From: an uncultured Pseudomonadota bacterium
GTDB lineage: Bacteria; Pseudomonadota; Gammaproteobacteria; Steroidobacterales; Steroidobacteraceae
Length of the DNA: 24,000 bases
Direction of reading: 5' to 3'
Assembly (NCBI GenBank): GCA_903862885.1
Contig: CAIOZU010000036.1
Coordinates: 21,284-45,283 of the forward strand
Positions 1 to 17,319 of this stretch are shown here, piece after piece. The position numbers were made by a program, and so were the translations under genes. Numbering within the stretch: position 1 is the first letter of the stretch; every line of letters begins with the position of its first letter. The notes beneath the pieces are model-generated. The model was not told the origin of the DNA. It saw only the letters and a program-made list of their open reading frames with translations, and ran no database searches.

Positions 1-391
1 TGGCCTTGCCCGCTAGGCCGACCAACTTAAGCAGTTCCATGCCTTTGTTCTCGGCTTCTGCTTGACTGATGCCGCGAAGCTTGATTGGCGACAGGGTTAA
101 GTTCTCAAGCACCGTGAGGTGGCTAAAGAGGTTAAAACCTTGGAACACCATATTCATTTTCTGGCGTACCTTCGGTACGTCAGTGTCAGGGCTCAACAGA
201 TCGACGCCATCAATGGAAATTTTCCCACTGGTGGGGTGCTCAAGTAGGTTGAGGCAACGCAGCAGGGTGCTCTTGCCGGTACCTGAGGGGCCAATGATCG
301 CAACCACTTCGCCTTGGTGGATTTCGGCCGTGATGTCCTTCAGTACGGTGAGTGGGCCGTACTGCTTGGTTAAATGCTCAATCTTAATCAT
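1..391 (-). CDS. Polar amino-acid ABC transporter ATP-binding subunit, 5' part only (gene continues past the window start)
   Basis: Hand translation of the minus strand from ATG 391..389 gives MIKIEHLTKQYGPLTVLKDITAEIHQGEVVAIIGPSGTGKSTLLRCLNLLEHPTSGKISIDGVDL...MVFQGFNLFSHLTVLENL. It has Walker A GPSGTGKST and a GlnQ/ArtP/HisP-like N-terminus. The start overlaps the stop of the upstream permease gene (ATGA at 388..391). It is missing from the ORF track because it is open at the window edge. The + strand ORF 69..431 is its shadow. Confidence 0.9.
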   Translation of the reverse strand, partial: MIKIEHLTKQYGPLTVLKDITAEIHQGEVVAIIGPSGTGKSTLLRCLNLLEHPTSGKISIDGVDLLSPDTDVPKVRQKMNMVFQGFNLFSHLTVLENLTLSPIKLRGISQAEAENKGMELLKLVGLAGKA

Positions 392-2649
392 ACGGCACCT
401 GCCTTGCGGCGCTTGGTCTTGGGGTCAGTGACTCGCTCGAGATAGTTCAGTGCCTGGAGCAATACACCCGATATCAAGAAGTAAAGAACAGCGATCATCA
501 TCAGTGGGAAGAACGCATCAAAGGTGCGGCTTCGGATGATGTCGCTTGCCTTGGTCAGATCCTGCACGGCGATATAACCGACGATTGAGGTCATCTTTAC
601 CAGAGAGATGAATTCGCCCTTGTACACCGGCAGAATTCTCACGATGGTTTGTGGCAGCACGATGTTAATGAAGGTGCGTGTTTGGCTAAAGCCCATGGCG
701 ATGCCGGCCTCTGTTTGACCGCGATCTAGGCTGCTCATGCCGGCGCGGAAGATCTCTGCGAAGTACGCTGCAAAGTTCATACCGAAGGCAATGACCGCCA
801 CCAGGATGGGGCTAATGCTCAAGGACGCAAACACAATGTAGAAAATCACCATGAGCAGCACGAGGACCGGCGTGCCCCGCAAGATGGCAATGTAAATCGA
901 TGCGGGATGACGCAGCCAGCCACTGGCGCTCATGCGCATGAAGCAGATAAGCCCGCCAAGCGCTGTGCCAAACAAGGTGGCTAGAATCGAGATGATGACG
1001 GTGGTCTGTAGGCCGTCCCAGATCAGAAGGTAGCGCTTCTCCAAGAGGATATTGCTTCGGAAGCTGTCCGCGACGCGTGCAAAATACCCAAGCTTTTCAG
1101 CGGCAGGTGTCGCATCGGGGGTGCCATCCAAGGCCGCAATATTGGATTTGAGCGCAAAGACGCGGACTGCTTGCTCATCGTAGGAATCGGAGAAATCGAT
1201 TTTCTTTTGGCGCTCCTCGGTGATGAAGATGGAGTCCGCGATCAGGTCCACTTTTTTCGTGGCTACCGCAGCAACGAGGCTGGAGAAATCCATATTGGAA
1301 AATTGGACGGGACGGTTGAGTGACGCGGCGAAGCGCTTCGTGAGCTCGATATCAAAGCCGACCAGCTCATTGTCTTTGACCGCTACGTAGGGCAGTCCGC
1401 TGACCGATGTACCGACAACCAGCGCGTTCGTGCCGGTGACAGCGGGTATGGGCTGGGCTTGTGTATCCTGATCGTCGAGCCAACGTTTTTGCATGTCTGC
1501 ATACACGCCGTTTTGTCGGATCGACTTCAGAAAGTCATTGAACTGCTGCTTAAGGGCCGTGTTGTCCTTATTAAAACCCAGACCCACGGGGAATGAAAAG
1601 ACGGGTTCTCCGACCGCGGCTAGGGTGGGCTCGGCTTTTAAAATTTCCTTCAACGCCTCGACGTCTGTCAGCGAGGCCTCTGCCTTGCCACTTTTGATCG
1701 CCATGATGACGTCTGATGCCGACTGGTACTGTAAGGTCGTGGCATCCGGATAGTTGGTGGTGACATAGAGAACGTAGGCGGTACCAATCTGGGCCGCGAT
1801 TTTCCGGCCATGCAGATCGCTCGATGAAGTGATTTTATGGTGGGTCGGTTCCGTCTCCACGGCGGACGCGCTGGTGGGCACCACCAACACTTGGTGGATG
1901 TCGGTGTAGGAGTCAGTGAAGTCGATTGACTTCTTGCGCTCGTCTGATGCGGCCATGCCGCCACCGATGATGTCAATCTTCTCTGCCTGCAGTGACTGGA
2001 TCAGTGCCATGAACTTCATGTCAATGAATTCGATGGGTCTATTCAGCTTAATGCCGATACGGCGCACCATTTCAGCGTCGTGACCGCTGATGAGGCCTTG
2101 GCCATCCACGAAAATCAATGGCTCACGGGTCGCGGCCACGCCCACTCTGAGGGGTTTGCCGGTGGTCGGCATGGTCAGGGTGGGTACGTCGTAGGTGGTG
2201 GTGCCCACCTGTAGCCAGCGGGACTCCATGGAGGCGAGCGTGCCGTCGGCTCGCATCTCAGCCAGGACGGCGTTTAGGCTGGCGAGCAAGTCGCTGTTGC
2301 CTTTGCGAACGCCGATGGCCAAGTGTTCGAATGACAGCGGGGCGTTCAATACTTTCAGGCCTGGATTTTTCTTGACCAGCTGGTTCGCGGTGAGATCGGC
2401 GGTGAGGAAGGTATCGAGCTGGTTGGCTTTGACCGCCGCCGCCGCGTCTAAGATGTCATCGAAATGCATCAGTGTGGCTTCAGGAAAACGCTTCGCTGCG
2501 ATGGCTTCACCGGTTGAGCCGGTGAGCACACCAATTTTGGCGTGATTGGCGTCGTCTAGAGCCTCGATGGTCAATCGATCGGGGTGGCAAGCCGTGAGTG
2601 CGAGCAGGCTGAGCAGTAGCCCTGCAGAAAGGGGCAGCGTTTTTTTCAT
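388..2649 (-). CDS. ABC transporter fusion protein: lipoprotein signal, periplasmic type-3 solute-binding domain segments, and a polar amino-acid permease domain
   Basis: 753-aa ORF. The N-terminus MKKTLPLSAGLLLSLLALTAC has an L-T-A-C lipobox. Residues ~165-392 look like a complete SBP_bac_3-type domain (LRVGV...IDFTDSY...DLHGRKIAAQIGT...RWL). Residues ~540-753 are a HisM/GlnP-type permease with the EAA loop (TEAGIAMGFSQTRTFINIVLPQ). The gene is translationally coupled to the ATPase gene. Confidence 0.9.
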   Translation of the reverse strand: MKKTLPLSAGLLLSLLALTACHPDRLTIEALDDANHAKIGVLTGSTGEAIAAKRFPEATLMHFDDILDAAAAVKANQLDTFLTADLTANQLVKKNPGLKVLNAPLSFEHLAIGVRKGNSDLLASLNAVLAEMRADGTLASMESRWLQVGTTTYDVPTLTMPTTGKPLRVGVAATREPLIFVDGQGLISGHDAEMVRRIGIKLNRPIEFIDMKFMALIQSLQAEKIDIIGGGMAASDERKKSIDFTDSYTDIHQVLVVPTSASAVETEPTHHKITSSSDLHGRKIAAQIGTAYVLYVTTNYPDATTLQYQSASDVIMAIKSGKAEASLTDVEALKEILKAEPTLAAVGEPVFSFPVGLGFNKDNTALKQQFNDFLKSIRQNGVYADMQKRWLDDQDTQAQPIPAVTGTNALVVGTSVSGLPYVAVKDNELVGFDIELTKRFAASLNRPVQFSNMDFSSLVAAVATKKVDLIADSIFITEERQKKIDFSDSYDEQAVRVFALKSNIAALDGTPDATPAAEKLGYFARVADSFRSNILLEKRYLLIWDGLQTTVIISILATLFGTALGGLICFMRMSASGWLRHPASIYIAILRGTPVLVLLMVIFYIVFASLSISPILVAVIAFGMNFAAYFAEIFRAGMSSLDRGQTEAGIAMGFSQTRTFINIVLPQTIVRILPVYKGEFISLVKMTSIVGYIAVQDLTKASDIIRSRTFDAFFPLMMIAVLYFLISGVLLQALNYLERVTDPKTKRRKAGAV

Positions 2650-4179: not shown

Positions 4180-5562
4180 TTAGAGCTCGAATCGGTCTCC
4201 TAGGGTGGGGATCTCAGCGGACGCCTCCGGTAGCCCGTTGGCGAAGGACTGGATAACCTGCGCATCGCCGTGGGTCAGAAAGGTACGCTTTGCCGCGACG
4301 CCGTGATGCCAGGCTAAGAGCGCATCCCGATCGGCGTGCGCAGAAAATCCGTTGATTGTATAAATGCGGGCGCGCACCGCGATGTCTTCACCAAATAAGT
4401 GAATAGAGGCTGCGCCATCAATGATGCGCCGTGCCGGTGTGCCCATGGCGGCGTAGCCGACAAAAATAATACTGGAGGCGTCGCTCGCTAGATTGTGCTG
4501 GATGTGATGCATCACTCGACCCCCTGTGCACATGCCGGAGCCCGCTAAAATGACCGCGCCGCCGGTGATCGCGTTGATGGCGCGCGATTCGCTGCCATCA
4601 CGGGTGAGGTGTAAGCCGCTGAAATGGAGTGGATCGTGTCCTTGTTTCAGTAGATCAGTGAATGCGGCTGATACCGCCTCTGGATGATTTTTGAACGCTT
4701 CGGTTGCGAGGATGGCCATCGGCGAGTCGAGAAAGACGGTGAGTGAGTGGGGTAATCGTTTGGTTTCGATGCCTTCGCGTATGTAATAGAGGATCTCTTG
4801 CGCGCGCTCGAGTGCGAAGGTGGGGATCACGACATTGCCACCGCGTGCGTGGGTTTGACTGATGGCCGTGTACAGCTCATCAAGGGTCGCCGGGAATGAG
4901 CGATGTAAACGATCGCCGTAGGTGGTCTCCATGATCACTGCATCTGCGCCTGGCGGGGGTATGGTGGGTCCATTGAGCATGGCGCGATCGCCCGTGCCCA
5001 AATCACCGGAGACCACTAAGCGTCTTTTTTTATCGTCTTCTGTGAGATCAAAGGAAAGACTGGCGGATCCTAGAATGTGTCCCGTGTCGTAGGCGGTGAC
5101 TTGGATGCCGGCGCAGATGTCCAGTGTTTGGCCGTAATGGAGCGAGCGGCCGAAGGCGGCGATCGTTTGTTCAGCGTCTTCGATGGCGTAGAGCGCTTCG
5201 CGGTGGGCGCGATGACCGCGTGGTCGCACATAGCTGCGACGCGCTTCCTCGGTCTGTAGGTGAGCTGAGTCGCGCAGCACAATGGCGGATAGCTCTTGAG
5301 TGGCTGAGGTGCTGATAATCTCACCTTGAAAGCCGCGCTTGATGAGTAGCGGTAGGCGGCCGCAGTGATCTAAGTGCGCGTGGGTTAGTACGACGTAGTC
5401 TATCTGCGTCGCATCAAAACCGAAGTCAGCAGAATTTTCCTCATGCAGGTCATGACTGCCCTGGAACAAGCCGCAATCGATCAGTACTTGGCGACCGTTG
5501 CAGGTCAGTCGATAGCACGATCCAGTGACTTCTCGAGCAGCGCCATGAAAGGAAATGTGCAT
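4180..5562 (-). CDS. MBL-fold metallo-hydrolase of the beta-CASP / RNA-metabolising type
   Basis: 460-aa ORF. N-terminus MHISFHGAAREVTGSCYRL...VLIDCGLFQG, HxHxDH motif (THAHLDHCG), and C-terminal GFSAHADRDALLAW typical of beta-CASP/RMMBL proteins. Confidence 0.85.
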   Translation of the reverse strand: MHISFHGAAREVTGSCYRLTCNGRQVLIDCGLFQGSHDLHEENSADFGFDATQIDYVVLTHAHLDHCGRLPLLIKRGFQGEIISTSATQELSAIVLRDSAHLQTEEARRSYVRPRGHRAHREALYAIEDAEQTIAAFGRSLHYGQTLDICAGIQVTAYDTGHILGSASLSFDLTEDDKKRRLVVSGDLGTGDRAMLNGPTIPPPGADAVIMETTYGDRLHRSFPATLDELYTAISQTHARGGNVVIPTFALERAQEILYYIREGIETKRLPHSLTVFLDSPMAILATEAFKNHPEAVSAAFTDLLKQGHDPLHFSGLHLTRDGSESRAINAITGGAVILAGSGMCTGGRVMHHIQHNLASDASSIIFVGYAAMGTPARRIIDGAASIHLFGEDIAVRARIYTINGFSAHADRDALLAWHHGVAAKRTFLTHGDAQVIQSFANGLPEASAEIPTLGDRFEL

Positions 5563-5570
5563 GGCGTCTC

Positions 5571-6524
5571 TTAACTGGGGCTGATAGCGGTGTGTTTTGG
5601 CAGGAGCGGGAAGTCGGGGTCATCGTGCGCCCCGTACCAGTCTTTGATTTGCTGCCATGCCTCCACCGCAGAGTCGGCAAAGCAGATGAGATCGCGGTCG
5701 GCGGCGGCGATGCTGCCTTCGGCGACTAAAAAGTCGAGGTCAAAGGCGCGAGTCCAGTAGTCGCGCCCCACCAGCACCACGGGCACTGCTGAGGTTTTCT
5801 GGGTCTGAATAAGCGTGAGCGTCTGAAAGAGTTCATCCAAGGTACCGAAGCCACCCGGAAAGGCGACCAAGGCGCGCGCACGCAGCAAAAAGTGCATTTT
5901 GCGCATCGCAAAATAGTGAAAACTAAAGCACAGCCCGGGTGTCACATAGGGATTTGGAAATTGCTCGTGCGGCAAGCTGATATTCAGCCCAATAGAGGGC
6001 GCACCACAGTCGAATGCGCCGCGATTGGCGGCCTCCATGATGCCAGGACCGCCACCGGTCATGATCGCCAGTCGCCCACCCAGTGGCGGTACTGATCGGC
6101 AGGCGAGTGTCGTAAATTCGCGTGCCATGACGTAGTAGTGAGATTTCGCGAGCAGTCGTTTAGTCACCTGCACCGCTGCGATCAAGGCGGGGTCTTCTGG
6201 AGATCGCGACAGCTGCAGCTCTGCTTGCTTCAAATCGCGGCGTAAAGCAGAGGGCTCGCCGATACGTGTGCTCCCAAAGACAACGATCGTTTGCTCAATA
6301 CCGGCGGCCTCTAAGGTCTGTTCGGCTTTCATAAAATCCAACTGCAGGCGCACCGCCCGCGCGTTGGGATCGGCGAGGAACCGCGTGTCTTGGTCGGCTT
6401 GTCGGTAACTGTCGTGCGACAGAATGGCGCGCACGCGATCGGGCGCGGCTGGGTCATCCTCCGCTGACTTGGCGATCTGCCAGGGCAGTCGATGCTTTTT
6501 TTGGGGCGGATCCGGGGCGGTCAC
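5571..6524 (-). CDS. LOG-family (TIGR00730-type) Rossmann protein, nucleotide N-glycosidase family, with an ~90-aa N-terminal extension
   Basis: Motifs GGGPGIMEAANRGA and PGGFGTLDELFQTLTLIQT (PGGxGTxxE). GTG start at 6524 is preceded by AGGTG. The stop lies 8 nt before the MBL hydrolase start, so the two are probably co-transcribed. Confidence 0.85.
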   Translation of the reverse strand: MTAPDPPQKKHRLPWQIAKSAEDDPAAPDRVRAILSHDSYRQADQDTRFLADPNARAVRLQLDFMKAEQTLEAAGIEQTIVVFGSTRIGEPSALRRDLKQAELQLSRSPEDPALIAAVQVTKRLLAKSHYYVMAREFTTLACRSVPPLGGRLAIMTGGGPGIMEAANRGAFDCGAPSIGLNISLPHEQFPNPYVTPGLCFSFHYFAMRKMHFLLRARALVAFPGGFGTLDELFQTLTLIQTQKTSAVPVVLVGRDYWTRAFDLDFLVAEGSIAAADRDLICFADSAVEAWQQIKDWYGAHDDPDFPLLPKHTAISPS

Positions 6525-6585
6525 TGAACACCTGTGGGGTGGCTAGCTTTTGCCTAATGAATTCAGTGTAGCGCAAGTCCTACCG

Positions 6586-6616
6586 ACCGACGCACGGGGT
6601 CAATCGGTGCGTCGGT
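6586..6616 (-). terminator. Hairpin downstream of the DUF1326 gene (candidate operon terminator, no U-tract)
   Basis: Inverted repeat ACCGACGCAC / GTGCGTCGGT (10 bp) around an 11-nt loop. It begins 12 nt after the stop at 6628. Confidence 0.35.
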
Positions 6617-6627
6617 GTGACTTGTAC

Positions 6628-7239
6628 TTAGGGGCCGCTCCAGTCGATCTGGACGATCTCAGCGCTTTTTCCTGACAGGTCCCAGACGCGCCCAAAGTCG
6701 CGCATCTTGCTCTTGACGCTACGTGCCACGGTCACGTCCGGACCCATCCAGTATTCCGTGTTTTGAATCATGGTTTGCTCACCACTGCGTTTGCCCGTGA
6801 TGGGCTCGACCGATGCCTTTAATACATTGCCGATTGTGATGTGGCGGATGGCACCCTCACGGGTGATCGAGATGGGTAACTGTTTAGTGCCTAAGTGGGT
6901 ACTGACTAACAGCCGGAACAGGCCGGTGGTGCCGCCCGCTTGGCCGCTAAAAATGTGTTCCAAGCCAGTCAGCGCGGCGGTCGAGGCACGCTCGTCCACA
7001 TAGAGCGCGGCCGTCCAGTTGCCATTGCCCATGCGGCCTGGGATATCGAGCAGCATGCCGACATTCAGATCGGTGAGTGAGACATCACCATAGGCGCCCT
7101 CCGTGATGTGTATGCCGACCCAGCCCTGGCAATAGCCTTGCGTTGGTGCGTGTTTGCCTAAGCTCACAACGCACGGACAGAACACGTCGCAGTTGCAGTT
7201 CAGAACCAACTCGCCCTTCATATGCCATGGTGTCGTCAT
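6628..7239 (-). CDS. DUF1326-family protein (uncharacterised, N-terminal five-cysteine cluster)
   Basis: 203-aa ORF with strong SD AGGAGAG. The N-terminus ELVLNCNCDVFCPCVVSLGKHAPTQGYCQGW carries five cysteines. This matches my recollection of the DUF1326 description (~210 aa, five conserved N-terminal Cys). Confidence 0.75.
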   Translation of the reverse strand: MTTPWHMKGELVLNCNCDVFCPCVVSLGKHAPTQGYCQGWVGIHITEGAYGDVSLTDLNVGMLLDIPGRMGNGNWTAALYVDERASTAALTGLEHIFSGQAGGTTGLFRLLVSTHLGTKQLPISITREGAIRHITIGNVLKASVEPITGKRSGEQTMIQNTEYWMGPDVTVARSVKSKMRDFGRVWDLSGKSAEIVQIDWSGP

Positions 7240-7248
7240 ACATCTCTC

Positions 7249-8043
7249 CTAGTGAATAAGGCCAGGCGCAATCCACACGGTGCCCCAAGCCACCAGTGCC
7301 ACGCCGACCGCGCGTCCGATCCAAAGCCCTGCGGGCAGTACTTTCTCAATCAGCATTAACACGGTAAGTCCTGCTGTGAAGCCCAGATCCATGGTGCCGG
7401 TGGCCACCATGAGCAGCATCAGTGCCCAACAGCAGCCCACGCAGTATGCGCCGTGGTGTAGTCCAAGACGTAGAGCGCCGGCTAATCCCTCACGCCAATG
7501 GGCGATGAAAAAGGTCATCGGGTTGCGGCACTTAGTGAGGCAGGCCTGCTTCAGTGGCGCAAATTGATAAGCACCCGCCAGTAGCAGCAGCGCGCCGAAA
7601 ACCCAGTCATGCGTCGCGCGATGTAAGTGTTGGCTCACTGTGGAGATGCCCCACTGGGCGAGGGTGGCGAGTGCGCAGAAGGCCAGCCAGGCGAGCAGAT
7701 AGCCGGTCACGAAGGCGCCTTCGCTTAAGGGGCGGGTCGTGTGGCGGGCGCGCTCGGCGAGATCGGAGAACGTGAGGATCGCGGGTGCTGCGGTCGGCAA
7801 CATCATGGCAATGGACATCACAAACCACATCGATAGCACGCTCATGCTATCGGCGAGCGAGGCGTATCCCGGCGGTTTTGCGTGTGCGGTGTACGGCGTG
7901 TGCACGGTCGGTGTTAAGCAGCCAAGACCCGCCGGGTTGTGAAGGAGCGATACCCAGGCGATGCCACTTAACATCACCAACGCCGCTGACACTATCCATC
8001 GCGGATGCAGGAGTAATCGGGCGGCGGGGTGATCGGTGTGCAT
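7249..8043 (-). CDS. DUF2182-family integral membrane protein (predicted metal-binding)
   Basis: 264-aa polytopic ORF. Motifs MWFVMSIAMMLPTAAPAIL and HHGAYCVGCCWALMLLM resemble the DUF2182 signature. Its stop is 9 nt before the DUF1326 start. Confidence 0.75.
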   Translation of the reverse strand: MHTDHPAARLLLHPRWIVSAALVMLSGIAWVSLLHNPAGLGCLTPTVHTPYTAHAKPPGYASLADSMSVLSMWFVMSIAMMLPTAAPAILTFSDLAERARHTTRPLSEGAFVTGYLLAWLAFCALATLAQWGISTVSQHLHRATHDWVFGALLLLAGAYQFAPLKQACLTKCRNPMTFFIAHWREGLAGALRLGLHHGAYCVGCCWALMLLMVATGTMDLGFTAGLTVLMLIEKVLPAGLWIGRAVGVALVAWGTVWIAPGLIH

Positions 8044-8051
8044 GGCGCGCG

Positions 8052-9155
8052 TTAGATAAACGGCAGGGTCTGTAAGTGTCCTGCCACCGGTTGGCCGTCC
8101 TTGCGTACGTCCACTCGGTCACCGACCTGACAGTTCACATCAATCAGCGCGAAACCGATGTTCTTTTTCAGTCGATAAGACCAAGCGCAGTTGGTGAGAT
8201 CGCCCACCTTGACGCCATCGCGATAAATGGGGTGCCAGAGAAAGCCAAACGGCGTGGGTTCGTTGCCCTCGAGGACGACGCCTAACTGATGGCGCTTGAC
8301 GCCCTCGCGTTTAATTTGGCGAAGCGCCTCGATGCCGATCACGTCATTCGCCACATCAAGATCAATGTATTTATCGAGACGCACTTCAAACGGGTTGGTG
8401 CGATCATCGGTATCGCCGCCATAAGACAGCAGCCCGCTCTCGACGCGCTCACAGAAGTTGGGATTACCAGGGCCGATGTCCCATGGCTTACCGGCTTCCT
8501 TAAAGATATTCCAGAGTTGGCTGCCTTTAGCGCCGTCTCTCAGGTAAATTTCGTAGCCCCCTTGTTTCGACCAGCCGGAGCGTGCGACCACCACCGGAAT
8601 GGTATCGATGGTGGTTTCTTTGAACCAAAAATACTTGAGATCGCGCACCCAATCGCCGCACACGGACGCCACCACCTCAACAGCCTTCGGTCCTTGCAGG
8701 GCAAGTGGCGAGACGTCCGGCTCGCTGACCGCTACCTGCAGTTTGCGCTCCGCCGCAATCGCACGCGCCCAAAACCAAATATTCGAATCCGCGATCGATA
8801 GCCACAGGTGATCCTCGGCCAGCTTCAGCAAAATGGGGTCGTTGATTAATACCCCCTGATGGTTGCATAGCGGCACGTATTTGCCTTGGCCAGGGAGGCA
8901 CTGGGCGAGTGATCGGGGCGTGAGGATCTGGGCGAGCTTTAAGGCGTCGGGGCCTTTCAGTTCGACTTGCCGTTCGACCGCCACGTCCCACAGAGACACC
9001 CCATGGATGAGCCGCCAGTACTCTTCCTCTGGGTGACCGAAGCTGGTGGGCATTAACATGTGGTTATAGGTGGTGAACGCCGTGACCCCCTCAGCCACCG
9101 TGGCCGCGAAGTAAGGGGAGGGGCGAAGTCGTGCGGATGGGGTGATGCCAAACAT
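8052..9155 (-). CDS. Aminomethyltransferase (GcvT) family protein, DmdA-like (candidate tetrahydrofolate-dependent DMSP or other methyl-donor demethylase)
   Basis: 367 aa. Blocks RLRPSPYF..TTYNHMLMPTSF, LWDVAVERQVELKGPDA, SEPDVSPLALQGPKA, VVARSGWSKQGGYEIYL and ERVESGLLSYGGD match the DmdA subgroup of GcvT-fold enzymes as I remember it. The size also fits (~365-370 aa). Confidence 0.8.
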   Translation of the reverse strand: MFGITPSARLRPSPYFAATVAEGVTAFTTYNHMLMPTSFGHPEEEYWRLIHGVSLWDVAVERQVELKGPDALKLAQILTPRSLAQCLPGQGKYVPLCNHQGVLINDPILLKLAEDHLWLSIADSNIWFWARAIAAERKLQVAVSEPDVSPLALQGPKAVEVVASVCGDWVRDLKYFWFKETTIDTIPVVVARSGWSKQGGYEIYLRDGAKGSQLWNIFKEAGKPWDIGPGNPNFCERVESGLLSYGGDTDDRTNPFEVRLDKYIDLDVANDVIGIEALRQIKREGVKRHQLGVVLEGNEPTPFGFLWHPIYRDGVKVGDLTNCAWSYRLKKNIGFALIDVNCQVGDRVDVRKDGQPVAGHLQTLPFI

Positions 9156-9197
9156 GGGGTGTCACGGGGTTTTGGGGTCGGGAGGGTTTTATGTCAT

Positions 9198-9212
9198 ATT
9201 TGTCTGACAAAT
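9198..9212. promoter_or_regulatory. 15-bp perfect palindrome ATTTGTCtGACAAAT in the divergent promoter region (candidate operator)
   Basis: Read directly from the sequence. It lies between the DmdA-like start (9155, minus) and the ligase start (9256, plus). The core TGTCTGACA fits the generic GntR-type GT-N3-AC pattern. Confidence 0.3.
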
Positions 9213-9255
9213 GCCAGTTTCGTCATTTGGCGATTGTTTGAGGGGGGCATTGACC

Positions 9256-10824
9256 ATGATTGAGGCGCCACAACCGTTATTCGCTGACCTGCTGAGGTTG
9301 AACGCCCGATGGCGCGCGAGCCGGCCCGCGATCACCGTGGGCGCCACGCAGCTGAGCTGGGCAGCCTTCGACGCGCGCACTGAAAAAGTGGCTAATGCAC
9401 TGATTGATATGGGATTAGGCCCAAAGGACTGCGTGGCGGTGCTGATGGCTAATAGCCTCGAGTGGGTGGAATTGATGGGCGGTGCGATTAAGGCGGGTGT
9501 GTGCATTGCGCCGCTCAATCTGTCGGTCTCGGATGAGGCGATCGAGCGAATGATCGTGGACTCCGGGGCTGTCGCGGTCTTTGCCAGTGCCTCCCAGCAG
9601 GCGCGTATCGATGCCCTGCGAAGCCGCTTGGCTGCGATCCCCGCGCAGGGCTACATCGCCGTGGGTGCCGGTCCTCAGTGGGTCGATTTTGCGGCATGGC
9701 GCGATCGCGCCGCCGCTCTTGCCCGCGCGGTGGGGCCCTCGGCGGATGATCCTTTCAATATTATCTATAGCTCAGGGACCACGGGCTTGCCTAAAGGCAT
9801 TGTCCACAGTCATCGCCGACGTCTGCAGTGGGCCTATGACGTCGGGATGGCGCTTCGCTTTCATTCGGGTGCGGTGACGCTGTGTCCGGTTGGATTATTT
9901 TCCAACATCAGCATGGGCGCGTTGTTGTTCACCTTACTGGCGGGTGGCCAACTGGTGGTGATGGAGCAGTTTGAGCCGCTGGCTTTTATCGAAGCGGTGG
10001 AGCGCCATCAGTGCACGCACGTGATTATGGTGCCGCTGCAGTTTCAAAAGGTGTTTGAGCACGCGGCTTTTGAGTCTCGGCGTCTTCGCTCTATGCAGAT
10101 GATGTGTACCGTGGGATCGCCGATGCACCCGGATCTAAAAGCGCGTATTGCTGCCACCGTGTCGGCGGATCTGATTGAGCTCTATGGTTTGACTGAGGGT
10201 ATTATTACGACCCTCGATCCGGAAGATGTGCACACCAAGACGGCGTCGGTCGGCAAGCCCGTGCCGGGCACGGATATTCGCATCATTAATGAGCAAGGCC
10301 AGGTGCTTCCTTGCGGTGAATGCGGTGAAATCGTCGGTTGGTCACGCTTTGTTATGAGCGGTTATCACGGGCGTCCGGAGGCCACGGAGGAGGCGCTGTG
10401 GTGGGATGAAAAGGGTAAGCCTTGGCTTCGCACCGGTGATATGGGGCGACTGGATGAGGAAGGCTTTCTTTATATTGTCGATCGTAAAAAAGATATGATT
10501 TTATCGGGCGGGCAGAATATTTATCCGGCCGATATCGAGGCGGTGCTGAAGACGCATCCGTTGGTATTTGATTGCGCAGTCATTGGGATTCCAGATCCTA
10601 AGTGGGGAGAGACGCCATTGGCGTTGGTGATGGTGCGCCCTGAGCAGACGCCGGTGGCCGCTGCGGCATTGCGTCAGTGGGTGAACGAACGACTCGGTAA
10701 GCAGCAGCGGATTGCAGCACTTGAATTTCGTGAGGATCTGCCGCGTAATCCCACGGGTAAGTTACTGAAGCGCGAGTTGCGTGAGCCTTATTGGCGCACT
10801 GTAAAGTCATCATTTTTTGGATGA
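9256..10824 (+). CDS. AMP-dependent acyl-CoA synthetase/ligase (class I adenylate-forming enzyme)
   Basis: Motifs IIYSSGTTGLPKGIVHSH, LYGLTEG, TGDMGRLDEEGFLYIVDRKKDMILSGGQNIYP and PRNPTGKLLKREL. ATG 9256 is preferred over the track start 9211 because GAGGGGGG lies 7-8 nt upstream and homologues start near MIEAPQ. Confidence 0.85.
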   Translation: MIEAPQPLFADLLRLNARWRASRPAITVGATQLSWAAFDARTEKVANALIDMGLGPKDCVAVLMANSLEWVELMGGAIKAGVCIAPLNLSVSDEAIERMIVDSGAVAVFASASQQARIDALRSRLAAIPAQGYIAVGAGPQWVDFAAWRDRAAALARAVGPSADDPFNIIYSSGTTGLPKGIVHSHRRRLQWAYDVGMALRFHSGAVTLCPVGLFSNISMGALLFTLLAGGQLVVMEQFEPLAFIEAVERHQCTHVIMVPLQFQKVFEHAAFESRRLRSMQMMCTVGSPMHPDLKARIAATVSADLIELYGLTEGIITTLDPEDVHTKTASVGKPVPGTDIRIINEQGQVLPCGECGEIVGWSRFVMSGYHGRPEATEEALWWDEKGKPWLRTGDMGRLDEEGFLYIVDRKKDMILSGGQNIYPADIEAVLKTHPLVFDCAVIGIPDPKWGETPLALVMVRPEQTPVAAAALRQWVNERLGKQQRIAALEFREDLPRNPTGKLLKRELREPYWRTVKSSFFG

Positions 10825-11308
10825 ACGGGTGTCAATAGACTGCGCACTGATTTGGGATCTGCCGTCACCGTATTTACATCGGCTTGATGTTGCGGCTAAC
10901 GACATCGATAGCTACCAGCATGTGAATAATGCGGTATATGTCGAGTGGCTGGATCGCGCCGCCTGGGCGCATTCGAGTGCGCTTGGACTGCCGGTCACGC
11001 GTTGCGTGGCGCTCGATCGGGGGATGGCGGTGGTGCGCACCGTGATCACTTATCGGCGGGCGGCGGTGCGCGGGGATCGGGTGGTGGTGGCCACCTGGTT
11101 GTTGCCCGGTGACACCAAGATGCGCGTGAGACGGCGCTTCCAGGTGCAACGCCCCACCGATGGCGAGACCTTGGTGCGTGCCGAGATCGACTACGCTTGC
11201 ATCGAATTAACAACGGGTCGACCGGCGCGTTGGCCGGCTGAGTTCCAAAGCGGCTACCACATTCTCCCGGAGGTCATGACCGCACAGGCTCAACTGGCGG
11301 CCTTGTGA
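10817..11308 (+). CDS. Hotdog-fold acyl-CoA thioesterase (4HBT/YbgC-like)
   Basis: Signature NDIDSYQHVNNAVYVEWLDRAAWAHSSALGL. TTG 10817 overlaps the ligase stop by 8 nt. The alternative GTG 10829 lies 4 nt after that stop. Either start implies co-transcription with the ligase. Confidence 0.8.
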   Translation: MDERVSIDCALIWDLPSPYLHRLDVAANDIDSYQHVNNAVYVEWLDRAAWAHSSALGLPVTRCVALDRGMAVVRTVITYRRAAVRGDRVVVATWLLPGDTKMRVRRRFQVQRPTDGETLVRAEIDYACIELTTGRPARWPAEFQSGYHILPEVMTAQAQLAAL

Positions 11309-11356: not shown

Positions 11357-12295
11357 TTAAGGCTCTAACACCACTTTGATGGCGCCGGCCGCACGATTAT
11401 TAGCCATTTGGAAGGCTTCTGGTGCGGCATCGATCGGAAAACGGTGCGTGATGAGGGTGCTGGCGATTAAGGGGTTGGCGGCCAGTGCTGCCGCGGCGAC
11501 GTCGACGTCGCGACTGAGTCCACACTGATCATAAAGGCTTGAAGCCACCAGTCGCAGCGACTTCATGCCGATCTCTAGGGCAGGGATGGTTAAGCTCTGC
11601 CAGTAAGTGGCCAGCATCAGAATGGTGCCGCCGGGTCGACACAGAGTCACGCAGTGCGCCATCGCCTCCGTGGTGCCGGCGCAGTCGACAACTACTGGGA
11701 ATTCACCGCTGCCGTCCACTTGAGCGCCTAAGCGCACGGCCGCTTCGCGCTGCGCATCGTGTCGCGCGAACACCGTGAGACCACTCACATAGCCGCTGGC
11801 CATGGCCGCAGTGCAAAGGCCTAAGGAGCCGGCGCCGACGATTGCCATCGGTTCGCGTGGGTTAAGAGGCACTCGACGCAGGCCGTGGAGGGCGACCGCT
11901 AATGGCTCAACGAGACACGCATCGCTCGGTCGCAGTCCGTCAGGTAGGCGCACCAGGCAGCGCGCGGGGACGATGATTTCATCGGCCATGCCGCCGTCAT
12001 GGCTTACCCCATAGATCATGCCCGCACCGCGCCGACACAGCGCGTACTCGCCACGTGTGCAGCTGTCGCAGTGACCGCAGGGTGCGATCGGCTCGATGGC
12101 GACGCGTGTCCCGTTACTCAGTTCGCCCGCCATCTCATGACCGAGTGTGCTGGTGATGGGCCAGCCCGCAGCGATCAGGTGCAGGTCGGAGCTGCAAATA
12201 CCCGCCGAACGAATACGAACGCGGATGCCATCACCCTGCGGGGGCGCCACGTCCACCACCTGGACGTGGCCGGAAAGAGTTCTGACAGCGCGCAT
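11357..12295 (-). CDS. Zinc-dependent alcohol dehydrogenase (MDR superfamily)
   Basis: Catalytic-zinc motif GHEMAGE, structural-zinc cysteines CGHCDSCTRGEYALC, and a Rossmann segment MAIVGAGSLGL. Confidence 0.85.
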   Translation of the reverse strand: MRAVRTLSGHVQVVDVAPPQGDGIRVRIRSAGICSSDLHLIAAGWPITSTLGHEMAGELSNGTRVAIEPIAPCGHCDSCTRGEYALCRRGAGMIYGVSHDGGMADEIIVPARCLVRLPDGLRPSDACLVEPLAVALHGLRRVPLNPREPMAIVGAGSLGLCTAAMASGYVSGLTVFARHDAQREAAVRLGAQVDGSGEFPVVVDCAGTTEAMAHCVTLCRPGGTILMLATYWQSLTIPALEIGMKSLRLVASSLYDQCGLSRDVDVAAAALAANPLIASTLITHRFPIDAAPEAFQMANNRAAGAIKVVLEP

Positions 12296-15489: not shown

Positions 15490-17319
15490 TTAATGAGCGG
15501 CAGACTTCGATGGCTCCGCGCGCGGGGGTGCCACGCCATCACCCCCTGGCATGGGAACGTGGCTTGGCGAATAGAAGCGATCGGCGGGGGTCGTTGCCAT
15601 GAAGGCGCTGGCGAGGTTTCCGGCTGAGACAGTGGGGGCGGCGGTGAGTGGGTCGTAGCGAAACGGCAGTAAGGTACGAAGCGCGTGCCAAGCTGCGGTC
15701 GGGCCCGCGCCAAACTGGCGGGTAGGGTCCTCGAGCTGTCGAATGTCCATCCAATAGGCGGCGTTCAGTAAGTCTTGTCCTAGGATGTCGCGCGATACAT
15801 CCAGCGCTTGGCGCAGACGCATCAGTTTCAACATAGGAACGGCGTCGATGTCACCGACGCCTTTGTCAGCGCTGACGCCATCCGGCGCGACCGGATTGGC
15901 GAGCGGCTTCAGTTCCTGCCACAGCGCATCCGCCGCGCCACCCCCGCCGCCCGCGCCGGCGCCATTCACACCGGAAGGTCCTGGGTGCGTTTTCAGTATC
16001 TGTCGAGCGTCAGTGACGGTGAAAAAAGTGTCCTCGAAGCGATGCATCCGCTGGACCACTACGACCATGAGGTTCGTCAGAGCAATCGGAAAGGCTTCGA
16101 CGTCGTCGACCAACGGATACGGATCCCAGTCTGAGTTCGACAGAATGAAGCCGTGTTTGCCGTGGCTGTACTTGCCGCCTTTGACGTAGTACTTCAATAG
16201 TTGTGGTGTTGACAGCTCCCACGAATCCTCGGGGGCAATATCCGGTCGCACGGTTGGGTTGTGATCGGTTGAGTTCATTTGCACGAGGGTGCTGTCGCGT
16301 AGCCGCGACCACGCCTGCCAAGCGCCGCCCGCGCGCCACACCGTGGCTCGTAGGCTCTCTGGGTCTTGAATAATGCGAAAGTCGCCGTTGAATACGTAAC
16401 TGCCCTTGAGCATATCCAGCGTGCGCGCGGCCGCGTAGTTGGCCCATGCGAACGGTCGGGTCGCCTGCACCGGCATGGTCAACGGACCAATGCTGCCGTT
16501 CATGGCATTAAGATCCATGGCCCAGACAACATCGTGCCATTCCAACAGATGGCGAATGTCATTCACCAACAGGGCCGCGAAGCCGGCGGTTAGGGCGCTG
16601 GTCGTGGCTAGGTTGCCATCGGCTCCCTCGAAATGAATGGGTTTTAGTCCGGCGCGGCGTAAGGCTTCAGCCGCGGGTAAGCGGATGCCTTTGTAATATG
16701 CGAAACCCCGGCCACGAAGCACCGTCCCTGTGGGTACGAAGTCGGCTTCGCCGATGGCGCCGCGCCATTGCACCGCCGGTGTGACGCCTGCGTTCAGTAG
16801 ATCCGCGATGCCTTGCACGAAGCCCGCACTCGCGGCGAGATAGCGCATGTTATTGAGATCCACCGCCAGCATGGCCCGACCCACTTCTTCCTCTGGGATG
16901 TCTTCACCAAAGCCGATTTCTGAATAGCCGGGGCCTGAGTAACGACGGGCGATTTCCGCCTTGAATTCGGCTGAGTCCGGGTCGCCTTTTAGGGAGGCCT
17001 CTTCACGACCAGACCCCGGTGAGCGATTAAACAGATACACCGGTATCCCTTCGGCTTGTGCCTCGAGAATGAGGCCGAATGATGCCTCAGCCCCTTGGAT
17101 GAGCTCCGGACTGAGGTGCACTTTTGCGCCATCGCGTGCGATGGCAACCAGTTGCTCAATGGACAAGTCATGGCCGGTCAGGGTGATCGTTTGCCCGGCT
17201 TTTTGGGGATCAATGACGTGATACGGTACGGCGCCGAGGGCGCTGCTGAGTGGCAGGACAACGCCCAAGAAGGCGGCGCTTGTAAGACGTTGAAATCGCC
17301 ATCTGACTGACTGACGCAT
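15490..17319 (-). CDS. Secreted protein with an aromatic amino-acid ammonia-lyase (HAL/PAL) fold, lacking the MIO-forming Ala-Ser-Gly triad
   Basis: 609 aa with SD AGGAGAG. Sec-type signal MRQSVRWRFQRLTSAAFLGVVLPLSSALGA. Blocks collinear with HutH: ITLTGHDLSIEQLVAIA, IQDPESLRATVWRAGGA (HutH has VQDPYSLRCQPQVMGA) and NSTDHNPTV (HutH has NAVSDNPLV). At the GSVGASGDLAPL position it reads GAIGEADFVPTG (16732..16761). Confidence 0.7.
   Translation of the reverse strand: MRQSVRWRFQRLTSAAFLGVVLPLSSALGAVPYHVIDPQKAGQTITLTGHDLSIEQLVAIARDGAKVHLSPELIQGAEASFGLILEAQAEGIPVYLFNRSPGSGREEASLKGDPDSAEFKAEIARRYSGPGYSEIGFGEDIPEEEVGRAMLAVDLNNMRYLAASAGFVQGIADLLNAGVTPAVQWRGAIGEADFVPTGTVLRGRGFAYYKGIRLPAAEALRRAGLKPIHFEGADGNLATTSALTAGFAALLVNDIRHLLEWHDVVWAMDLNAMNGSIGPLTMPVQATRPFAWANYAAARTLDMLKGSYVFNGDFRIIQDPESLRATVWRAGGAWQAWSRLRDSTLVQMNSTDHNPTVRPDIAPEDSWELSTPQLLKYYVKGGKYSHGKHGFILSNSDWDPYPLVDDVEAFPIALTNLMVVVVQRMHRFEDTFFTVTDARQILKTHPGPSGVNGAGAGGGGGAADALWQELKPLANPVAPDGVSADKGVGDIDAVPMLKLMRLRQALDVSRDILGQDLLNAAYWMDIRQLEDPTRQFGAGPTAAWHALRTLLPFRYDPLTAAPTVSAGNLASAFMATTPADRFYSPSHVPMPGGDGVAPPRAEPSKSAAH

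Follow-up and report, generated by a model that had tools for sequence, protein, structure and literature searches.

A compact dmdA-like, dmdE and dmdF gene group in an uncultured gammaproteobacterium and its probable part in dimethylsulfoniopropionate demethylation

Genes and features of the locus

The genes considered in this study lie side by side on the minus strand of a 24 kb stretch of DNA (contig CAIOZU010000036.1, positions 21,284 to 45,283; the whole stretch is referred to as the window) from an uncultured gammaproteobacterium of the Steroidobacteraceae. The first encodes a relative of DmdA, the demethylase of dimethylsulfoniopropionate (DMSP), the second a membrane protein of the family once called DUF2182 and the third a soluble protein of the family DUF1326. 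I will refer to the last two as DmdE and DmdF, the names given to these families by Fu et al. (EMBO J 2026; PMC12992908). The three genes probably constitute a minimal operon for DMSP demethylation, built around a DmdA-like enzyme that appears to lie outside the characterised clades A and D. Their coordinates, and those of other features of the window, are given in Table 1. For comparison, 80 genome loci containing DmdF homologues were fetched and assembled into a context table, the reference proteins of which were checked by Pfam and NCBIfam; individual loci, including further ones with dmdA-like genes, are cited by number (L003 and so on).

Table 1. Features of the 24 kb window discussed in the text, with positions counted from the first nucleotide of the window.
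Feature	Position	Strand	Description
dmdA-like gene (w-type)	8052-9155	-	367 residues, GcvT fold; first of the three genes
dmdE	7249-8043	-	264 residues; PF09948 (PpoB2, formerly DUF2182) polytopic membrane protein
dmdF	6628-7239	-	203 residues; PF07040 (DUF1326) soluble protein
Stable hairpin	6570-6628	-	Directly 3' of the dmdF stop codon; core stem CCGACGCAC/GTGCGTCGG
Conserved 20-nt block	9195-9214	n/a	GCATTTGTCAGACAAATATG (minus-strand reading); candidate DmdR-type dmd box operator
Palindrome TGTCAGACA	9201-9209		Inside the 20-nt block
AMP-forming acyl-CoA ligase	9211-10824	+	AMP-binding and AMP-binding_C domains; gene callers start at ~9256; divergent from the operon
4HBT-type thioesterase	10817-11308	+	4HBT_2, 59.8 bits; 8-nt overlap with the ligase stop
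Medium-chain dehydrogenase	11357-12295		MDR family; rejected as acuI
Solute-binding/permease protein	388-2649	-	753 residues; two SBP_bac_3 domains fused to an ABC permease domain
LOG-family and beta-CASP genes	4180-6524	-	Directly downstream of the operon
Aromatic amino acid lyase	15490-17319	-	609 residues; HAL/PAL family

The list of open reading frames (ORFs) agrees exactly with an earlier note on this DNA in leaving gaps of just 8 nt between dmdA and dmdE (8044-8051) and 9 nt between dmdE and dmdF (7240-7248), and a strong Shine-Dalgarno sequence, AGGAGA, can be read directly from the sequence 5 nt upstream of dmdF. The hairpin that the same note saw behind the last gene proved real by a shuffle test: its folding energy is -26.8 kcal/mol (z = -3.35), and 2 of 200 shuffled sequences fold as well. 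It lacks the T/U tract of a canonical intrinsic terminator and was passed over by the terminator scan, but it probably marks the end of the operon. Elsewhere the terminator scan of the window gave chance-level sites only, a scan for the sigma-70 consensus found no promoter, inside the three-gene block or out of it, and scans for Rfam families and tRNA genes returned zero matches. The earlier note's impression of a single operon is sound: the three genes would form one compact transcription unit, co-transcription being read from the spacing only. The precise beginning of the second gene is a separate matter. In L087, an 84%-identical relative, dmdE as called begins within dmdA, the two sharing 47 nt (8058-8104 of that locus), as compared to the 8-nt gap in the window, so the true dmdE start codon is uncertain.

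DmdE and DmdF

To the knowledge of the earlier note, both DUFs were without an assigned function, and a connection with folate-dependent methyl transfer had yet to be described. Both statements are out of date. The current Pfam name of PF09948 is PpoB2 copper chaperone, after a protein of Marinomonas mediterranea that delivers copper to tyrosinase (PMC2855505), and Fu et al. (PMC12992908) show that the genes of both families are co-transcribed with dmdA. In Ruegeria lacuscaerulensis, dmdE-dmdF-dinB-dmdA-acuI form a transcription unit controlled by DmdR, a repressor of the GntR/FadR type that has acryloyl-CoA as its effector. Mutants in dmdE or dmdF do not grow on DMSP, demethylation being toxic without the pair; the dmdE mutant is partly rescued by deletion of dmdA. 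DmdE is not a DMSP importer, and purified DmdF consumes H2O2, an in-vitro peroxidase activity (all PMC12992908). The note's own suggestion of a metal or redox module that handles a reactive product comes close to this published model.

The same three families thus share an operon in Ruegeria and, as it appears, in the window, with an identity of ~60% between the two DmdF proteins, but the two arrangements differ in several respects. The order is dmdA-dmdE-dmdF rather than dmdE-dmdF-(dinB)-dmdA-acuI, the demethylase belongs to a different clade (42% identity), and dmdR, acuI and dinB are not found within the 24 kb. The place of dmdR on the divergent side is taken by an acyl-CoA ligase/thioesterase pair, and the host is an uncultured proteobacterium, as compared to the Rhodobacterales of the published system.

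The assignments to families are not in doubt. The dmdE product scores 212.6 bits on PF09948 (Pfam cut-off 28.7) and the dmdF product 178.6 bits on PF07040 (cut-off 25). Hidden Markov model searches and alignments agree with what had been read from the letters, that is, a polytopic DUF2182 protein with HHGAYCVGCCWALM and AMMLPTAAP motifs and a soluble DUF1326 protein with the cluster CNCDVFCPC...C, the latter alignment comprising 72 sequences.

DmdE is modelled by AlphaFold2 as about seven long helices (predicted local distance difference test, pLDDT, 84). Ten of its residues are invariant in 58 homologues (M76, M80, M81, P83, P87, C168, C172, C201, C204 and C205), and H197 is kept in at least 90% of them; the motifs so defined are an invariant MxxxMM...P...P, a CxxxC and HHGxxCxGCC. 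Two loops, residues 100-107 and residues 160-185, are rich in lysine and arginine, and C168 and C172 lie in the second. These loops are presumably cytoplasmic, which would put the CxxxC motif, and possibly the HH motif that opens the next helix, within reach of cytosolic DmdF. No solved structure related to DmdE was found by sequence, and a Foldseek search of the PDB gave nothing meaningful. PpoB2, the founding member of PF09948 (COG5486), is likewise polytopic, with Met/Cys/His motifs, and is likewise encoded beside the enzyme it serves. It loads copper into tyrosinase, however, whereas the operon in the window encodes no copper enzyme and DmdA needs no metal; nor has PpoB2 been reported as paired with a DUF1326 protein, unlike DmdE.

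DmdF has no signal peptide and is modelled with high confidence (pLDDT 95.4) as a mostly beta structure. Its five cysteines (C15-x-C17-x3-C21-x-C23 ... C37), invariant in the 72 sequences, are distributed in the model over the end of strand 1, a short helix and the beginning of strand 2. No relative of solved structure was found by sequence, and the nearest solved folds are beta-cones like that of acetoacetate decarboxylase (3bgt; E 1e-5, template modelling score 0.48), followed by AttH-like folds.

The relationships of DmdF separate two kinds of DUF1326 protein. The window protein is 57-63% identical to the DmdF of dmdR-regulated operons in Roseobacter and Roseibium and 69-75% identical to the DmdF proteins of metagenome-assembled genomes (MAGs) labelled Proteobacteria or Rhodospirillaceae, those of the Rhodospirillaceae adjoining dmdR/acuI. 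Identity over all loci linked to dmdR/acuI is 58-89%, as compared to 30-34% with the DUF1326 proteins of unlinked pairs. By this measure it is an orthologue of the dmdR/acuI-linked DmdF and not of the unlinked proteins. The unlinked, stand-alone pairs (in Modicisalibacter, Phenylobacterium and cyanobacteria) also have the two families adjacent, but in the reversed order, DUF1326 first, without nearby genes for DMSP or acrylate metabolism and without consistent neighbours. Their existence suggests that DUF1326-DUF2182 is a general two-gene module, one branch of which has been recruited to DMSP metabolism.

A third clade of DmdA-like proteins

The enzyme encoded by the first gene, which I will call w-type, consists of GCV_T (130 bits) and GCV_T_C (44 bits) domains. 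The closest solved structure is DmdA of P. ubique (3TFH), aligned over residues 2-367 with 287 bits, the next being GcvT of T. maritima with 119 bits. The motif SGWSKQGGYE is identical in the alignment with 3TFH, where it supplies W197, E204 and Y206, the tryptophan being key for contact with DMSP and the glutamate and tyrosine folate-binding (PMC7487153). The tryptophan by itself does not discriminate, because this residue, like the DmdA fold itself, is also retained in some sister clades classed as non-DmdA (Hernandez et al. 2020, PMC7487153).

Compared with the DmdA proteins of P. ubique (3TFH/3TFI/3TFJ, clade D) and R. pomeroyi (clade A), the window enzyme has the same length and domain architecture, aligns with them end to end and has the SGWSKQGGYE motif in common. 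It differs from them in identity, in lying in a separate, well-supported clade and in scoring 380 bits on the curated DmdA model. The identities are only 39% to P. ubique and 42% to the clade-A protein of Ruegeria, those two being 44% identical to each other. In a bootstrapped neighbour-joining tree, constructed without reference DmdA clades B, C and E and without SPO1648, the w-type clade has 100% support, clade A 99%, and clade A together with P. ubique 65%, effectively a trichotomy. A GcvT-fold enzyme resembling DmdA had been expected from the letters, and 3TFH is indeed the best match; the protein nonetheless falls outside the curated DmdA equivalog, in a sister clade.

These comparisons suggest that w-type proteins make up a distinct third DmdA-like clade, so far uncharacterised and sister to characterised DmdA. 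The clade is evidently large: 7984 of 8000 scored candidate proteins matched at E <= 1e-20, the best 120 of them at least 73% identical. Its members, one of which comes from a Chloroflexota MAG, are labelled only as aminomethyltransferase in public sources. To judge by these matches, the clade is abundant, extends across phyla and goes unannotated.

Genomic contexts of the homologues

Nearly all of the 80 DmdF loci have one layout, in which dmdR is divergent from a series beginning with dmdE and dmdF and ending with acuI, with places between them for dinB, a clade-A dmdA and, in Roseibium, an acyl-CoA ligase gene. In loci of the Rhodospirillaceae type, acuI is divergent from dmdR-dmdE-dmdF and dmdA is absent. 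The exact proteins of the window are present on metagenome contigs of up to ~50 kb, and its arrangement recurs in two loci. L003, from the MAG of the uncultured proteobacterium VK_bin-4049, is the closest relative (92% identity for DmdA, 73% for DmdE and 89% for DmdF), and both it and L087 have dmdA-dmdE-dmdF with a divergent ligase/thioesterase pair and different genes downstream. The adjacency to a GcvT-family gene is therefore not confined to this genome, and dmdEF genes are found with two clades of DmdA. The direct joining of dmdEF to the gene of a second demethylase clade, in a different order and with neither acuI nor dinB, nor a dmdR beside it, points to DmdE and DmdF as serving demethylation itself and not the detoxification of acrylate.

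It might be objected that the three genes are merely neighbours and that the short gaps reflect compact genome organisation, with no function shared. Co-transcription was, after all, deduced from spacing, and there are many w-type homologues without dmdEF and many dmdEF loci without dmdA. The three-gene block has been kept in L003 and L087, however, despite the different genes downstream; dmdEF are associated with two DmdA clades in different orders; and the genetics of Ruegeria tie dmdE and dmdF to dmdA activity (PMC12992908). I regard coincidence as highly improbable.

Other w-type genes lie among genes of DMSP metabolism in a variety of ways. In L083 the gene is beside dmdR, dmdE and dmdF, transcribed in that order, and beside a rightward acuI followed by an enoyl-CoA hydratase gene. 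In L085, dmdR is divergent from w-type dmdA and acuI, the classic layout of R. pomeroyi, and the AcuI protein reaches the NCBIfam cut-off. In L088 the w-type gene adjoins those of a 591-residue DmdC-like acyl-CoA dehydrogenase and of the O-acetylhomoserine sulfhydrylase MetY, an enzyme able to use methanethiol. In two Rhodobacterales (L045 and L053), w-type dmdA is found 1-5 kb from dmdEF-acuI, and a clade-A dmdA is missing at the site. Such neighbours (dmdR, acuI, dmdEF, the DmdC-like dehydrogenase and MetY) support a role linked to DMSP.

Two recurrent associations in these loci may be recorded in passing. Behind w-type dmdA, or behind dmdA-acuI, the unrelated loci L045 (5959-7323) and L085 (9217-10581) both have a gene for a 454-residue FAD_oxidored protein (PF12831). 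In two Ruegeria genomes, a gene of the SBP56 (methanethiol-oxidase) family lies beside dmdR (L038, 6854-8284, minus strand, and the same position in L082); the proteins have no obvious signal peptide.

A candidate operator in the divergent promoter region

The region of ~100 nt between dmdA and the divergent ligase gene contains the palindrome TGTCAGACA, ~50 nt upstream of the dmdA start codon and found once in the whole 24 kb. It lies within a block of 20 nt that is perfectly kept in L003 and L087 despite diverged flanks. DmdR is known to bind dmd boxes; the footprinted box of R. pomeroyi is TTAAATGTCAGAC, and the core TGTCAGAC is identical in the two, so that in the window, as in the Ruegeria operon, a dmd-box-like sequence precedes the first gene.

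The sequence TGTCNGACA occurs 103 times in the 1.5 Mb of fetched loci, where ~19 occurrences are expected, and it clusters between dmdR and dmdE, in ~48 loci. It is also found ahead of w-type dmdA, at a distance of 35-90 nt, in L003, L085/86, L087 and L088. On this evidence the w-type clade appears to belong to the network of genes controlled through DmdR boxes. A further dmd-box-like palindrome in L088, at 9932 (and 6967), lies between the gene of the 591-residue DmdC-like dehydrogenase and metY, which suggests a wider DmdR-type regulon that may take in the assimilation of methanethiol. A tblastn search of the 24 kb with the DmdR reference gave zero matches at E <= 1e-3, and there is no GntR domain among the scanned ORFs. 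The regulator is presumably encoded elsewhere.

Probable function and its alternatives

Taken together, I consider it fairly probable that the locus is a minimal DMSP-demethylation operon regulated by a DmdR-type repressor, in which a DmdA of the third clade is accompanied by DmdE and DmdF acting protectively, as they do in Ruegeria. The w-type enzyme would, most likely, remove a methyl group from DMSP, or from a very close analogue, in a reaction dependent on tetrahydrofolate (THF), yielding methylmercaptopropionate and 5-methyl-THF. DmdE and DmdF would act together: DmdE would present Cys, His and Met ligands on or close to the cytoplasmic side of the membrane, and soluble DmdF would bear its five-cysteine cluster on a beta-cone like that of acetoacetate decarboxylase. 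The two might then constitute a thiophilic metal or redox relay protecting the cell against the oxidative or thiol-derived damage that the pathway brings with it (from H2O2 or methanethiol). A GntR/FadR regulator of the DmdR type, encoded outside the window, would probably repress the operon through TGTCAGACA between the operon and the ligase/thioesterase pair. In this account, gene content, family and clade placement, the operator with its conservation and the surroundings of the homologues were observed here, while the need for DmdE and DmdF on DMSP, the peroxidase activity of DmdF and the binding of dmd boxes by DmdR come from published work; what the w-type enzyme acts on, which regulator is involved and how DmdE and DmdF cooperate are what I infer.

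Several results weigh against this account. The w-type protein falls below the cut-off of the NCBIfam DmdA equivalog NF009133 (380.5 vs 410 bits), as does the entire group consisting of it and five relatives (366-392 bits), as compared to 474-700 for DmdAs of the characterised type (P. ubique 635, Ruegeria 700, Roseibium 637 and Jannaschia 474 bits). It lies outside both characterised clades in the tree, and a DmdA-like paralogue, SPO1648 of R. pomeroyi, is reported to be non-functional (Fu et al., PMC12992908). The w-type genes of L085, L088 and L089 have no dmdEF nearby, and the 24 kb contain no homologues of dmdR, acuI, dinB, SBP56/methanethiol oxidase or enoyl-CoA hydratase. The consensus of the operator is generic for regulators of the FadR type. 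As for DmdF, the structure search gave no match to a peroxidase, catalase or peroxiredoxin fold, and showing the published activity called for 440 ug of protein in each lane (PMC12992908).

The first group of these results might be explained if the w-type enzyme acted on a related compound, converting methylmercaptopropionate to 3-mercaptopropionate or taking as its substrate another sulfonium, such as dimethylsulfoxonium propionate (DMSOP) or dimethylsulfonioacetate, or a betaine, with dmdEF as a general companion. The consistent shortfall from the DmdA cut-off and the separate position in the tree fit such a view, and so do the noncommittal public annotation, the non-DmdA sister clades in which DmdA fold and Trp are both preserved (PMC7487153), the non-functional paralogue of Fu et al. 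(PMC12992908) and the presence of amidase or acyl-CoA dehydrogenase genes next to some homologues in a Chloroflexota MAG. Against it, W197, E204 and Y206 are conserved, and the clade fills bona fide dmdA slots: in the dmdR divergon with acuI, with dmdEF, with the DmdC-like dehydrogenase and MetY, and behind a dmd box. In two Rhodobacterales it stands alongside dmdEF-acuI in the place of a clade-A dmdA. A different substrate is accordingly a distinctly unlikely explanation.

The results regarding DmdF invite a different proposal, that DmdE and DmdF are not a peroxidase system but a pair that handles copper(I), DmdE being a membrane chaperone or transporter like PpoB2 and DmdF a cytosolic carrier of copper as a thiolate. 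Methanethiol and sulfide would react with cellular copper or strip it from its sites, the reactive oxygen of the mutants would come from copper-catalysed oxidation of thiols, and the weak consumption of H2O2 by DmdF would be due to bound metal. DmdE offers its invariant MxxxMM...P...P as well as CxxxC and HHGxxCxGCC, and motifs of the MxxxM (Ctr1) and CxxxC-like kinds are typical thiophilic ligands of Cu(I). The invariant CxCx3CxC+C cluster of DmdF, a protein without a peroxidase-like fold, resembles polycopper-thiolate motifs. The name of PF09948, derived from PpoB2 (PMC2855505), tends in the same direction, as does the SBP56 gene, for a copper enzyme, beside dmdR in two Ruegeria loci. On the other side, methanethiol oxidase has its own SCO1/SenC chaperone (PMC5739008), SBP56 is adjacent in only 2 of the 80 loci, no copper enzymes are found near the distant DUF1326-DUF2182 pairs, and R. 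pomeroyi demethylates DMSP without dmdEF (PMC12992908). A copper-handling pair thus strikes me as unlikely, though it is the main rival account of the two proteins. The narrower idea that DmdE is the chaperone of methanethiol oxidase was considered and found weak, given the enzyme's own chaperone, the two adjacent cases and the lack of any SBP56 gene in the window.

These two proposals may be combined into a broader one, in which the w-type enzyme has a substrate other than DMSP (as in the long-sought aerobic demethylation of methylmercaptopropionate), or DmdE and DmdF are a copper(I)-thiolate relay against the chemistry of methanethiol and copper, or both. This also I judge unlikely, and the protected DMSP-demethylation operon remains the preferred reading.

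Other genes in the window

The divergent ligase gene has been kept in L003 (81% identity) and in L087 (74%), together with the thioesterase gene (75% in L087). It is unusual for a ligase to be paired with a thioesterase. The former was considered as a possible DmdB and rejected, since its score against DmdB (6IHK), 146 bits, is no better than those of luciferases, while FadD13 gives 246 bits. The medium-chain dehydrogenase beyond the thioesterase was similarly rejected as acuI: it scores 17.5 bits on the YhdH model, and no AcuI homologue is present in the window.

On the far side of the operon, the gene for the 753-residue protein that joins two solute-binding domains to the permease domain of an ATP-binding cassette (ABC) transporter occupies a syntenic position in both L087 and the longer source contig, with an ABC ATPase gene next to it in the latter. 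The protein could be an importer of the operon's substrate. Between it and the operon are genes for a protein of the LOG ("lysine decarboxylase") family, with 317 residues and a long N-terminal extension, and for a beta-CASP metallo-beta-lactamase RNase. The best NCBIfam match of the latter is to Cas14 of type VII CRISPR (clustered regularly interspaced short palindromic repeats) systems, at 360 bits far under the cut-off of 800. Neither gene is at the corresponding position in L003. Further away, the aromatic amino acid lyase gene is flanked by those of short-chain dehydrogenases, a DUF1295 membrane protein and a SnoaL-like protein, and the region may be a small cluster for an aromatic metabolite.

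Significance

Demethylation is the main bacterial sink for DMSP, one of the ocean's largest pools of organosulfur, and it competes with the production of climate-active dimethyl sulfide. The link between a demethylase and dmdEF is real, but it was already published in 2026 for Roseobacter bacteria (PMC12992908). What the locus adds is, first, the stripped-down dmdA-dmdE-dmdF architecture, with a demethylase of another clade, in an uncultured proteobacterium outside the Roseobacter group and, second, the placing of a large DmdA-like clade, excluded by the NCBI model, in what appears to be the network controlled by DmdR boxes. If w-type proteins are active on DMSP, then surveys of dmdA that make use of the curated model undercount the bacteria capable of demethylation.

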